From Polyangiaceae bacterium (lineage in GTDB: Bacteria; Myxococcota_A; Polyangia; Polyangiales; Polyangiaceae), in NCBI GenBank assembly GCA_050287085.1, contig JBNKBE010000038.1, positions 1 to 28,993 of the forward strand: a stretch of DNA of 28,993 bases. The letters run 5' to 3'. This document shows positions 7,486-15,329 of this stretch, one piece after another. Below the pieces are notes generated by a model. It saw nothing but the letters and a program-made list of their open reading frames with translations, had not been told where the DNA came from and did no database searches. Each line of letters begins with the position of its first letter. The stretch's first letter is position 1. The position numbers were made by a program, and so were the translations under genes.

Positions 7486-8262
7486 TCAGCGCATGAGGCT
7501 GCTTGCACAGCGGGTCGCCTCGTGCACTTCGCTCACCAAGTACTCCCAAGCGCTGGTGCGGGGAAAGGCCCCAGCGGGGGCTGCATCGCAGGCGGCTTCG
7601 GCTTGTGCAGGGTTCTTTTGCGACACATCGAGGCATACCTGATGAAGCAGCTCGCAGGCGTCGGTGCGTTTTGCGTCGCGTCGATTTCCCGGCACCGCGA
7701 GCCACCGGAGCAACGCATCGCGGGCCGCCGCGGGCGCCCGGGCCGCAATCGTGTTGAGAAGGCGCTCAGCGTAGAACGTAGCTTTGGCGATGCGGAGCAA
7801 CTCGGCCTCGAGTGCTTGCTCGATAACGCCGTCACGGACCGCGGCGGCAAAGGTTGCTCGCAGGTTCACCAGCGCGTCCGAAGTGCTTCGAAATTGATGC
7901 TCGGCTCCGGCATGGGCCACTGCCACCTCATCGTCGTCTTCGAGCTCTCCGCGGGCAAATGCGGCGTAGACGGAGCCGCTTCCTTTCATCCCGTAGGGCG
8001 CGAGCTCAACCGCCCGCAGTGCTCCCATGCTGGAGGCGCCCCAAAGCGTGACCCCACGACTCAAGGCCCAAAGCAGTTCCTTGTGGTTTACCGATGGCTG
8101 ATGTTCAAACACGCCGTCGATGAGGCAGATGAGTTGAGCGCCTGCTTGCACTGCCCGGAGCACGTCGCCGCGAGCGGCGGGGCCCAGGCAGACGGCCTCC
8201 GGAAAGAGCCCGTGAGCCTCCTCTGGAGACAGCGATGGACCGCTGAAGATCACCGCCTTCAT
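7486..8262 (-). CDS. tfuA: TfuA-like protein (YcaO partner in thioamide formation)
   Basis: Motifs IFSGPSL, PAARGDV, LIDGVF, HKELLWAL, GASSMGALRAVEL and DDDEVAV; ATGA overlap with the ycaO stop. Confidence 0.93.
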   Translation of the reverse strand: MKAVIFSGPSLSPEEAHGLFPEAVCLGPAARGDVLRAVQAGAQLICLIDGVFEHQPSVNHKELLWALSRGVTLWGASSMGALRAVELAPYGMKGSGSVYAAFARGELEDDDEVAVAHAGAEHQFRSTSDALVNLRATFAAAVRDGVIEQALEAELLRIAKATFYAERLLNTIAARAPAAARDALLRWLAVPGNRRDAKRTDACELLHQVCLDVSQKNPAQAEAACDAAPAGAFPRTSAWEYLVSEVHEATRCASSLMR

Positions 8263-9422
8263 GCCGCGCTTGACTCCCTGGTGGCTTCGGTTGGGAGCTG
8301 AAGCAAGCCTGGTGCAAGCACCCGCACCACGGCGATCGGGGCGTTTGCTTTTGACAGGTCGACGACCAGGGGCGAAGCATGGCCCTGTCGCTTGAGTTGC
8401 TGCAGCAACCAGGTCAGGTCTTCGTTGAGCGTGGAAAATGAATGTGAGGGGACGGTGTCCAAGCGCCGCGCGCAGCGGCTAGCCTTCAACTGAAGGTAAG
8501 CCCACTCCCAGCGCTGGCGGCTGCGCGCTCGGGCCAAGCTGCGCCTGGTGATATCATCGCGCGCGCCGACGATCAGCGTGAGTCGAGATTGCGCCGCTTC
8601 CGTGATGGCACGCAAGAGCGCAACTTCGCGGTCGGCGTGACAGCCTAGCCCGTGGGCGAGGGGCAAGGGGCGCAGCGGGTCGTATTGACGCTCGAGGATC
8701 GAACAGCGGAAGGCAGCGACGCCGAGGTCGTCGCTGAGGTCCCAAAGAGCGACGGCGGCCCCCCCGGCGTCGATGCGCTCGATCCAGTGTCGTGCCGTAG
8801 CCGGTAGTGAGTCGAGGTCCAGTCGTCGCGCGTCTTGCTCACCGACGGAGCGCGCGTAGAAGCGGGCGGCCAGGTGTCGCTCAACAACTTCAAATAGAGC
8901 GTGGCAGGTGGCCTCAAGCACGGTGTTGCCGGAGGCGAGGCCATTGGAGCTCACGTCGAGATCGGGTTGGGGTGTTGTGACGCGATAGTCGAGGTGTACC
9001 CGCCCGAAGGGCACCCAAGCCGGGGCACCGCTTTGAACTTCCACGCCTTGGATCCACAAGCGGGCGGCGTGTGTGTCCCCACCTGGGGCGCGATGGGCTC
9101 CGCGGGGTAGGGCGTGCTCCGTACAATAGCGGAGCGGCCGCTCGACGTGTTCGGCGTGCCAGTGTTCGAGGCCTTCCATCAACCCCGATACCTTTGCCGC
9201 CAGCAGGGAAATGCCCTTGCCCTGAACAACGCTGAGCGAACGACTGGCAGGGCGCGTCACCATGACAACCGGGACGCCTAGGGTGTCGAGCCCCGTCACG
9301 TTGGCCACCCGCGTAATGCCTGCGCCGGCAAGGAGCGGCTGCAGGCGGTCGAACGTCGTCTGAAGACGCCGCACGCGATGCGTTCCCTCGAGGTGCGTCT
9401 TTCGTTCTACGGCTTCAAACAC
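8259..9422 (-). CDS. ycaO: YcaO-family protein (TfuA-associated thioamide synthetase type)
   Basis: Motifs RVANVTGLDTLGVPV, SVVQGKG, SGLMEGLE, SSNGLASGN, FEVVERH, RAITEAAQSR and GARDD. Confidence 0.93.
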   Translation of the reverse strand: MFEAVERKTHLEGTHRVRRLQTTFDRLQPLLAGAGITRVANVTGLDTLGVPVVMVTRPASRSLSVVQGKGISLLAAKVSGLMEGLEHWHAEHVERPLRYCTEHALPRGAHRAPGGDTHAARLWIQGVEVQSGAPAWVPFGRVHLDYRVTTPQPDLDVSSNGLASGNTVLEATCHALFEVVERHLAARFYARSVGEQDARRLDLDSLPATARHWIERIDAGGAAVALWDLSDDLGVAAFRCSILERQYDPLRPLPLAHGLGCHADREVALLRAITEAAQSRLTLIVGARDDITRRSLARARSRQRWEWAYLQLKASRCARRLDTVPSHSFSTLNEDLTWLLQQLKRQGHASPLVVDLSKANAPIAVVRVLAPGLLQLPTEATRESSAA

Positions 9423-9564
9423 TCACCAACCTTAGCCGGCGGCGCCCAGAAGCTCCACCCCGAGCCCTCCTCGACTCCTTGAAACAGGTGGCCCAACAGG
9501 AGCTGTCAGGCAGTGTCATGGTGTTGTTTTGCCGGCAGTGCTAGGGCGGTCTCGGAGGACTCTC

Positions 9565-14200: not shown

Positions 14201-14366
14201 CCTTCAGCGCCACGGAGTCGGCGCTACGGACGTGGTGCGCTTCGTAAACGACACTCTCACGCCCGCCGCCGATCACTCGGCGCAACGTGTAGTCCCCCAC
14301 GCGCTCACCCAGGACGAGTCGCGTGGGGCTTGACGTTGTGGGTGCATCGTGGTGTTGTTCCAACAC
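11262..14366 (-). CDS. Hanks-type Ser/Thr kinase fused to an AAA/STAND-like ATPase and a TPR-like helical region
   Basis: Kinase motifs IGGGRESVVY, VALK, HGDICPRN, DFG and YCAPE; Walker A GEPGSGKT and Walker B YVIDD; Ala/Leu/Arg-rich helical C-terminus. Start codon uncertain. Confidence 0.9.
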   Translation of the reverse strand: MLEQHHDAPTTSSPTRLVLGERVGDYTLRRVIGGGRESVVYEAHHVRSADSVALKAPRDAMGSSRIFHEFRILRRLHRRGIHALRPVAFGLEGGLPWFATDLQSGGDLGSHLRRQQERPSGARYGWRTALGWLRALADTLEAIHRAGIIHGDICPRNAVLNAEGLPTWIDFGSSVLLSDATSGQSVRGPNTATPGYCAPERQAQERWDSRADIYALGCVAFELLSGRAPFAADDVSGLCLQHGTAEPLPLGQLVSLPQEVEALITNMLAKDPRVRLKRAAEVVARIDKCLAPSRAGTPGARAESESESESESESESESARSASCRSASPGFLLDAPLVGQEEVLCQVLAALCKPAPAAVVVVAGEPGSGKTRILDELERRLRRKGLGSLAASAGPRRGQRPAPLAPLRRLIHVALREVERPSPRRDAHVHPLTALAPYLSRAPAAGRASGEPSASELSAAQRLRLHCALEASLELLARAGYHHYVIDDAEQADDATLGFVDWLARRKKRGATLILSWSHSSRPPPGSNAKHCQTATLSRLSWPQCDYLVREKLGVDAIAEATVSELFAISEGNPKRLHDALTRAVTRGEVQQAQGATHLVAHEPTKPAAYQYASREASEQTLPKLKQGARRAAQALDWDEAASLLARAAAAYRHHPSPHRERLRIRSAVERLVVLWHGARHTSVLEGARQLLETEPLTTLERAHTLRLAGLAARVLGRYSQAETYIRAGLQLTLAAPRYRVALRREGLELRLAEAKLAYVRRDLQATRHTLRAALEEARGVGTPAQRAELLTALANATLFRNRYRSAKRALRYLSTALEFNTARGANPATLAMSRFELGFALLLGGPAQLQQADQQLILARHLAHTAGDALLLARVTLYQAVVARRLRQQERCHGYALNALEAAHSNHLSGYVGAAHACLAGVALHRGDTRQALDELLLAERAWAPSSTRHNGSSSEYPFQWLGLLVQLAIAASRDDSSTCARAVSALLRPSQARLEPNLEIALRMAQQTHPEGEEYSARIDAVVRAATALAYL
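13413..13460. repeat. (GCTCTC)8 microsatellite encoding an (ES)8 linker in the kinase
   Basis: Eight perfect hexamer copies between the kinase and ATPase domains. Confidence 0.95.
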
Positions 14367-14396
14367 AGCGTTCAGAGTACGGGGTTGACAGCAGAC

Positions 14397-15329
14397 ATGG
14401 GCCGCCTAGTTTCGTCGCTGACTCAACGTACAGTGTTCTTGGAAACCGACACTCTGGTCGGGCGTTCGAGTCGTTGTACCTTGCAGCTTGGCAACGTGCG
14501 TGTTTCCAACGAGCACGCGAGCATCCACTGGAGCGGGGACGGTTGGCTCTTGCGAGATCTTGGCAGTCTGAACGGTACGTGGATGGACGGTCGGCGGCTT
14601 GCTCCGGGCGAAACCGTGCCACTGCGCCAGGGGGTGGTCCTTCACTTTGGTGACGCGGGCGACAGCTGGCTTGTGGCGGAGCTCGCTGCGCCCGTGGCGA
14701 TGGCCGTCAGATTGGAAGGGGGGCCCACTGTTGTTGCGCCCAGCGAAGGTCTGTTGCCGCTACCCTCCAGCGAGAAGCCCATCGTGACCGTTCATCGCGA
14801 TGAGCATGGTGGCTGGTATCTGGATCGGCCGGGCGAGCCAGGAGCGGTGGAGAACGGCGCTTTGGTCGAGGTGGGAAGCAGACGTTATCGTTTGAGTCTT
14901 CCAAACATCTCAGCGCAGACCACTCCGGTGGAAGGTGCGGGCGTAGTGCGCATAGCGGACGTCGCCTTGACGTTCTACCCGTCGGAAGATCTGGAACACA
15001 TAGAAGTCGAAGCGGCGGTGGCAGGTCGCGCCGCGAAACTTGGGGCACGCGGCCACAACGAGCTCCTACTCGTGTTGGCCCGCATGCGACAGGCGGATTG
15101 CCAGCAGCACTTGCCGCCGCCCAACTGCGGTTGGATGTATCAAGATCAGTTGTGCCGGGACGCAGCTGTCGCCAACGAGCATCTCGATGTGGTGGTGTAC
15201 CGCATTCGGCGTCAGTTCAGTCGTCTGCCGGTGATAGATCCCGCAAGCATCATTCAACGTCGGCGGCGTTCGCGTCAGATCCGTCTCGGCACAGGTCACG
15301 TGCGTGAGGTTCCTGGCGGTAGCTCTTGA
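14397..15329 (+). CDS. FHA-domain protein with a putative C-terminal winged-helix DNA-binding domain
   Basis: FHA motifs VGR, VSNEHA and RDLGSLNGT; C-terminal LDVVVYRIRRQF resembles an OmpR-type recognition helix. ATG 14397 chosen as start. Confidence 0.87.
   Translation: MGRLVSSLTQRTVFLETDTLVGRSSRCTLQLGNVRVSNEHASIHWSGDGWLLRDLGSLNGTWMDGRRLAPGETVPLRQGVVLHFGDAGDSWLVAELAAPVAMAVRLEGGPTVVAPSEGLLPLPSSEKPIVTVHRDEHGGWYLDRPGEPGAVENGALVEVGSRRYRLSLPNISAQTTPVEGAGVVRIADVALTFYPSEDLEHIEVEAAVAGRAAKLGARGHNELLLVLARMRQADCQQHLPPPNCGWMYQDQLCRDAAVANEHLDVVVYRIRRQFSRLPVIDPASIIQRRRRSRQIRLGTGHVREVPGGSS

Follow-up and report, generated by a model that had tools for sequence, protein, structure and literature searches.

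A stretch of 28,993 nucleotides (nt) from a Polyangiaceae bacterium (assembly GCA_050287085.1, contig JBNKBE010000038.1), hereafter the window, carries a ycaO–tfuA gene pair beside genes for a zinc protease, a large kinase and an FHA-domain protein. The locus represents a conserved, apparently undescribed variant of YcaO–TfuA systems with a specific candidate substrate: an unnamed domain of ~80 residues, here called the module, at least two copies of which (hairpin, helix, strand, loop, C-x-L-V-N) lie in the N-terminal half of the protease. The module is probably the substrate of the enzyme pair, counting together its modification in place and its release as an excised peptide. Tentatively, and with distinctly less assurance, we favour a fuller account in which the kinase/FHA pair would induce the locus and YcaO–TfuA would thioamidate, in place, the loop before Cys86 of the folded module 1. 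The window is contig C38 of the source genome, labelled G000; other loci carry L numbers and other genomes G numbers.

Several lines of evidence connect the module to ycaO. First, it accompanies one clade of YcaO proteins. TfuA was found in 18 of 61 relatives and in 67 of 401 genomes of the order, and we compared 101 loci, the window included, with genes called by our own codon-score caller. A quick IQ-TREE phylogeny of YcaO covered 86 of the 101; the 15 loci without a separately called full-length YcaO or TfuA were dropped, and L037, L100, L102 and L129 are missing from the tree although they bear the module. The window YcaO lies inside a 56-row clade (SH-like approximate likelihood ratio test, SH-aLRT, 95). 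The module is found within 6 kb of ycaO in 45 of the 56 clade loci, a large kinase is present in 42, an FHA protein of the window type in 19, the zinc protease in 11 and a cytolysin in 1, against 0, 7, 0, 0 and 0, respectively, of the 30 loci outside the clade; these are counts of kin, not of independent loci, and most of the sequences used to train the module profiles came from the clade. An earlier note on this DNA had proposed a search for the kinase, FHA and protease genes beside homologous ycaO–tfuA pairs, and by these counts all three are conserved there. The module gene stands directly upstream of ycaO in 44 clade loci (33 on the same strand, 11 divergent) and elsewhere in the locus in 2, and it is absent from 10; the upstream gene mostly encodes 78–233 residues, or a fusion, and ends in loop-C-x-L-V-N. 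Within a six-locus sub-branch that lacks the module, four loci (L088, L093, L122 and L124) have ordinary precursor-like peptides upstream of ycaO, as read from their sequences.

Second, when the 401 genomes of the order were searched in full for the module, 25 places were found. They fall in 22 genomes, each of them one of the 67 that have TfuA, and none lies in the 334 others; 11 of the 25 are rows of the query alignment, and divergent copies, the window's included, were missed. All but one of these matches lie within 3.8 kb of tfuA, and the 25th directly precedes a ycaO truncated by the end of its contig. The same search in 401 genomes of the phylum returned 2 matches, both directly before ycaO, and among 4934 G000 genes the module profiles match only two, both ycaO-adjacent.

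Related layouts were seen elsewhere. G000 holds a second, paralogous system at C18:109974-125870 (L037 and upstream), with a small kinase, an FHA paralogue, a large kinase, a GST-like gene, a fusion gene (barrel-like protein with two modules), ycaO and a long tfuA. Outside the order, L151:6895-16874 (G469) has a 113-residue module directly before ycaO–tfuA, a large kinase nearby and neighbours that by their N-termini seem to resemble a subtilase, an acyl-CoA dehydrogenase and an NmrA protein. A separate YcaO clade (L051, L053, L142 and L145) has a gene for 51–65 residues immediately behind tfuA, followed by a kinase; this is another type linked to a kinase, and its candidate substrate is a different one. 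L047, L048 and L050 are ycaO–tfuA loci with small genes (62–108 residues) and a recurring protein family of 206–246 residues, which may be heme-oxygenase-like oxidases.

Third, the window modules can be linked to the stand-alone ones. A profile started from 11 stand-alone proteins and extended iteratively with no protease-linked sequence (39 domains collected; best reversed decoy E 0.49) found three split protease-linked genes at E 7e-5 to 8e-4, and the same non-protease profile matched the held-out metagenomic fusion L154 at E 1.9e-5. In profile–profile comparison with hhalign, module 1 aligned to the stand-alone profile with a probability of 90.3% (E 1.5e-6, 32 columns) and the last module with 92.7% (E 4.2e-7, 71 columns); 40 column shuffles of each gave at most 1.7% and 4.5%, respectively. 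A first profile of 6 sequences did not link the families significantly, and module 1 against the last module reached a probability of 0.2%. In 6 clade loci the protease and modules form one protein and in 5 they are separate, and the module is therefore an independent unit. Its family comprises 317 clusters at 50% identity (E ≤ 0.001), named in databases only as 'hypothetical' apart from one unrelated label; the module had no match above cut-off in Pfam, NCBIfam or Atlas, and the 568-residue fusion matched no Pfam or NCBIfam family.

The module is likely a folded domain rather than a leader–core peptide, because its stand-alone model has a predicted local distance difference test (pLDDT) score of 80, the strands flanking the loop are more conserved than the loop itself, loop length is nearly constant (8–10 residues in 102 of 106 measured) and stand-alone copies keep the Cys in 103 of 105 cases and the Asn in 102 of 105. 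The model consists of a hairpin, two helices, a strand, a low-confidence loop, a strand and a helix. A similar order of secondary structure appears at residues 11–90 and 253–314 in the model of the window fusion (pLDDT 56; predicted template modelling score, pTM, 0.46). In module 1 the loop reads P74-LRNEPEEAAFC-C86-YLVN90 (9784–9834), and P74, E78, P79, C86, Y87 and N90 are invariant in 5 full-length homologues. Fold searches with the module model gave at best a Foldseek E of 2.4 and a Z of 2.1, although a monomer model of a likely dimer may hide the fold. Up to four copies occur in some homologues, and among proteins with two copies there are many in which the long loop and the Cys are kept in just one. 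This suggests that the Cys-less copy is the structural partner in a pseudo-dimer presenting one loop.

The position of the module also invites comparison with peptides that are ribosomally synthesized and then modified post-translationally (RiPPs). Within thioamitide and thiovarsolin clusters, ycaO–tfuA has a dedicated gene directly upstream, with repeated units in some precursors (PMC6511847 and PMC8120280). The module could similarly be a precursor, its fold a recognition scaffold and its loop first thioamidated and afterwards excised, in this locus by the attached protease in a self-processing reaction that would yield a small thioamide peptide. It fills the same slot as ordinary precursors, and its up to four copies recall the repeated cores of thiovarsolin precursors (PMC6511847). 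It is joined to proteases of two unrelated kinds, the metzincin and, in L038, a subtilase; a subtilase-like gene follows tfuA in L044; and NmrA-type reductases and barrel-like proteins, possible tailoring enzymes, each occur in 10–11 loci. We nonetheless consider this outcome unlikely. Unlike a leader–core precursor, the upstream gene here encodes a predicted folded domain, often fused to an enzyme and with no leader or double-glycine motif; its loop is internal, between two conserved strands, so that two cuts would be needed, and does not vary more than other positions at the surface. Neither a protease nor a transporter family is common to most clade loci. The earlier note had reported neither a short precursor open reading frame (ORF) nor a transporter beside these genes, which is literally true, and no short leader–core precursor ORF near ycaO recurs in protease-type loci; its term 'precursor-less' misleads, as the domain that in relatives fills the precursor slot is present, fused to the protease.

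The main alternative is that the module backbone stays unmodified and that the module is a dedicated YcaO–TfuA partner, either a Cys sulfur relay or a dimerising adaptor for fused cargo, with the cargo or another protein as substrate. It holds this place because the Cys is nearly invariant, in 147 of 150 module representatives as well as in the stand-alone copies counted above, and because position alone cannot separate the two readings. This alternative would also suit the variety of proteins to which the module is fused (metzincin, subtilase, NmrA-like, Big_2 Ig and barrel-like proteins) and the finding that no ThiS-like family recurs among clade neighbours. However, many loci have only a small module between kinase and ycaO, which leaves no cargo, and one stand-alone copy (L041) has Ser in place of the Cys. 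Further, TfuA, whose reported job is the release of sulfide from thiocarboxylated ThiS (PMC8939145), is intact, and three ThiS-family genes lie elsewhere in the source genome. On balance this alternative is rather improbable. A complex prediction of the L095 YcaO with its cognate stand-alone module, ATP and Mg scored 0.00 in both runs, with controls that did not fold, and speaks neither for nor against an interaction.

YcaO–TfuA pairs are known to exchange O for S in the backbones of proteins. YcaO proteins activate a backbone amide with ATP, and the window YcaO keeps E83, E86, S158-S159-N160-G161, E178, E181, R182, E275, Q278 and R280, all presumably in ATP/Mg binding. TfuA keeps 26 of the 27 columns that are at least 90% conserved across 95 TfuA proteins. 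Matches to PF02624 and PF07812 above cut-off place the two among YcaO–TfuA thioamide-forming pairs, with thioamide formation itself predicted. The nearest solved relative of the window YcaO is MJ1094 (6pe3; E 7.6e-26). The window YcaO falls below the cut-offs of both McrA thioglycine equivalogs (TIGR03266, 179.2 against 365; NF033432, 193.6 against 235.2) and of the uL16-modifying YcaO family (NF040716, 29.3 bits against 700), and, unlike in that family, a tfuA gene is adjacent. TfuA occurs in two forms, a short one of ~250 residues, as in the window, and a long one of ~350–480 with an unclassified C-terminal extension (L034, L095, L044 and others).

The window YcaO lacks the C-terminal PGYxPGxRA tail, as do the four closest relatives shown (L044, L075, L077 and L040); given this common short tail and the kept ATGA overlap with tfuA, a frameshift was rejected. 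Some features of the window could nevertheless reflect decay, or a YcaO–TfuA pair acting on an unlinked conventional precursor elsewhere in the genome: the YcaO end branch is long (0.67), with 12 departures at well-conserved columns, the Met-turn of the protease carries Leu, and the protease and kinase contain low-complexity insertions. Against this, none of the five frames is interrupted, the gene order and the repeat upstream agree with those of relatives, the catalytic motifs are intact and the shortened YcaO tail is a feature of the sub-branch, and we regard either possibility as very improbable.

The genes are laid out as in Table 1. The same five-gene order is found in L044, L075, L077, L040 and L076, and because it recurs in five other loci the arrangement is not due to chance. 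The earlier note had described ycaO and tfuA as translationally coupled and separated from the protease gene by a 142-nt divergent region; the ATGA overlap and a gap of exactly 142 nt between the starts agree with this, as does its overlap of the 3′ ends of the protease and kinase genes, which measures 10 nt (11262–11271). The protease ATG at 9565 is preceded by GGAGGA. The FHA gene most likely starts at ATG 14397 rather than GTG 14349, because its homologues begin there, leaving ~30 nt to the kinase start. No sigma-70-like site was found in the 142-nt divergent region, and a sigma-54 promoter pattern was not found either.

Table 1. Features of the YcaO–TfuA locus in the window
Feature	Position	Strand	Basis and remarks
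tfuA, 258 residues, short form	7486..8262	-	Pfam PF07812, E 1.9e-43
ycaO, 387 residues	8259..9422	-	Pfam PF02624, E 7.3e-62; ATGA overlap with tfuA
Divergent intergenic region, 142 nt	9423..9564	.	Sequence
Period-10 direct repeat TGTCAG-N4-TGTCAT, candidate operator of the FHA regulator	9504..9519	+	Pattern kept in relatives
568-residue fusion: tandem modules and zinc-protease domain, without signal peptide	9565..11271	+	
Module 1, residues 6–96, likely YcaO–TfuA target	9580..9852	+	hhalign against stand-alone profile
Last module, residues 238–321, without long loop and conserved Cys	10276..10527	+	hhalign against stand-alone profile
Myroilysin-like metzincin catalytic domain	10558..11271	+	Foldseek; zinc motif 10912–10944
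Ser/Thr kinase, AAA_16 ATPase and helical repeat protein, 1034 residues, likely sensor	11262..14366	-	Pfam
FHA-domain protein with conserved C-terminal domain, likely transcription regulator	14397..15329	+	Pfam FHA, E 1.2e-18

The protease is a metzincin by its zinc motif, HEVGHALGLPH (His450–His460), and by its fold, the best Foldseek match of the catalytic domain being myroilysin (5zjk, E 6.7e-7). As the earlier note held, it is a HExxHxxGxxH protein without a signal peptide (best 15-residue N-terminal hydropathy 0.4). The Met-turn has Met in most homologues (SVM, SIM, SLM) and Leu (SVL) at the aligned place in the window. Myroilysin is a bacterial M12A metzincin with a cysteine switch and, as here, a Cys-bearing segment before the catalytic domain; M12A astacins are defined by a SIMHY motif with a zinc-binding Tyr and by a signal peptide (both statements from PMC9848320). 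The window protein differs in lacking the SIMHY tyrosine (it has SVLWG), a signal peptide and a hydrophobic N-terminus, and the preceding segment is a tandem-module region of ~325 residues that 5 of 11 clade loci encode separately. The protease family occurs in 11 of the 401 genomes, 4 of these being query rows; 10 copies lie within 2.9 kb of tfuA and the 11th starts a 3.6-kb contig. A metagenome scan with the protease alignment gave 3 loci, one of which (L156) holds an unrelated ordinary M12-like protease. Present in 11 of the 56 clade loci, the myroilysin-like protease is a variable accessory, not a core part.

By contrast, the large kinase and the FHA protein travel with the ycaO locus, being co-inherited with this clade, and are best read as a transcriptional switch. 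The kinase has a Walker A motif (GEPGSGKT), a DFG motif and the catalytic loop HGDICPRN. Of the kinase–AAA–TPR architecture given in the earlier note, Pfam recovers Pkinase and AAA_16, whereas the TPR part has no match in the window kinase at E ≤ 0.01; TPR_12 and TPR_MalT match in the L104 homologue. In a tree of the ATPase region (50 of 62 rows), linked kinases form a group that excludes the five other comparable kinases of G000 (basal support weak, 0.69), and a clade-kinase profile scores the C18 kinase, on which it was not trained, at 754 bits against at most 407 for unlinked kinases. Ser, Cys or Thr replaces the catalytic-loop Lys in 9 of 10 protease-linked kinases (one unread), whereas 26 other clade kinases have Lys. 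These changes could mark a dead kinase, but Ser also stands there in 15 of 77 G000 kinase matches.

The FHA domain and the divergent gene order described earlier both stand, and G22, R23, S37, H40 and N59, which we take to be phosphothreonine-binding residues, are invariant in 9 homologues. The winged helix also named there, looked for as an OmpR-type domain, is a weak lead (Atlas Trans_reg_C cluster at 0.81; hhalign probability 1.9%; no PDB match). When 10 upstream regions were searched for motifs, a modest signal emerged (17.1 bits; two shuffles gave 14.9), which turned out to be a period-10 repeat. Allowing at most one mismatch, this TGTCA direct repeat precedes the module–protease gene in 4 of 12 regions (window, L044, L075 and L077) and in the held-out L154. 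The 6.2-Mb G000 contains the repeat without mismatch at 2 places: in the window, a match that follows from how the pattern was built, and on C18 between a kinase gene and the FHA paralogue, 12 kb from the second ycaO. The repeat is a candidate site of the FHA regulator.

The earlier note had sought the substrate among the proteins of the cluster: the protease N-terminal region, the kinase or the cytolysin. The protease N-terminal region is the best candidate, because it consists of members of the domain family found across the clade in the position upstream of ycaO. It is very unlikely that the kinase, the catalytic domain of the protease or the cytolysin is modified by YcaO–TfuA instead. A kinase of at least 850 residues lies within 8 kb in 42 of the 56 clade loci, and linked kinases group together, with sub-branches that resemble the YcaO tree. 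However, 14 loci have no such kinase near ycaO, and its combination with the FHA protein, an ordinary regulatory pairing, fits regulation, which makes it an unlikely substrate; the protease occurs in 11 of 56 loci, and any of these choices leaves the module unexplained. The cytolysin, whose N-terminus is lipoprotein-like, was ruled out as a member of the system, as it stands near ycaO in 1 of 56 clade loci, the window itself. Its gene (4490–7423) encodes 977 residues with a lipoprotein-like start, Cys-rich repeats, a thiol-activated cytolysin domain and FG-GAP repeats (Pfam).

We thus arrive at a provisional scheme. The ATPase/repeat part of the kinase protein would sense a signal and its kinase domain would write a phosphothreonine, which the FHA protein would bind together with the TGTCA direct repeat, inducing the locus. 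YcaO would then activate a backbone amide with ATP and TfuA would supply sulfide from thiocarboxylated ThiS, exchanging O for S in the loop before Cys86 of module 1, likely in place on the folded domain, with the Cys-less copy helping to present it. The effect of the mark is the weakest step. In the window the module occupies the place of a prodomain, fused to or, in other loci, encoded before a cytoplasmic myroilysin-like protease, and control of that protease is one option; elsewhere the module is joined to other accessory proteins. A bolder version, which we think unlikely, would make this a third class of natural protein thioamidation and the first regulatory one, in which a kinase-induced YcaO–TfuA marks a portable switch domain of ~80 residues with a backbone thioamide; in this locus the mark, lying beside Cys86, would govern the zinc site of the cytoplasmic protease attached to the domain.

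Several observations weigh against the scheme. Its support is gene context and homology throughout, and gene position does not discriminate between substrate and adaptor. Backbone thioamidation does not require a near-invariant Cys, for which a role in sulfur relay or with a metal would account equally. The window protein had no direct match to the stand-alone profile; the link of its modules rests on profile–profile comparison, for module 1 over only 32 columns, the model is poor in the module region (pLDDT mostly 30–65) and the window loop is without the Gly-x-Gly seen in stand-alone copies. The protease is missing from 45 of the 56 loci and has Leu at its Met-turn in the window, and the repeat is missing, at up to one mismatch, from 8 of 12 protease-type promoters. 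Finally, related genomes are not independent, and the genome-wide matches include the 11 that were already in the query alignment.

The rest of the window contains other features. A CRISPR array at the contig start (1–680) has at least 9 full copies of a ~36-nt repeat at a spacing of 71–75 nt, and a 113-residue ORF there is an artefact of the array. Beside it a minus-strand run (734–3705) comprises a DUF1508 gene, a HerA-like ATPase and an unclassified 332-residue protein, and imperfect 45-nt tandem repeats follow at 3955–4269, three units of which read NSSDEQMLCPQ-like on the minus strand. Positions 15352–28993 hold ordinary genes: a LysR/MetR-like regulator with metE, a mechanosensitive channel with a cNMP domain, a GST, a WYL regulator, an ECF sigma factor and a GNAT protein.

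The proposed chemistry would resemble that of two known systems, and the gene layout that of RiPP clusters. The McrA thioglycine system (MJ1094) uses the same enzyme pair on a protein rather than a peptide; the window differs in being bacterial and in having a kinase/FHA pair and, as candidate substrate, a small unnamed domain encoded next door. Escherichia coli YcaO modifies a loop of folded uL16, as proposed here for the module, whereas that enzyme is longer and TfuA-independent (PMC13063428). The same source names methyl-coenzyme M reductase and uL16 as the only two proteins known with a backbone thioamide and expects more YcaO protein substrates. We found no description of the domain or cluster in the literature, although supplements (for example, the precursor table of PMC8120280) and subscription journals may hold one.

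If the module is indeed modified, a new protein family would join these two, one with a defined loop, cognate enzymes and small soluble members. Many myxobacterial ycaO–tfuA loci look precursor-less because such a candidate, being folded, tandem or fused, would escape searches for short ORFs. And should the modification gate the protease or other cargo with the kinase in control, thioamidation would serve as a mark in signalling, beyond its structural and natural-product roles.

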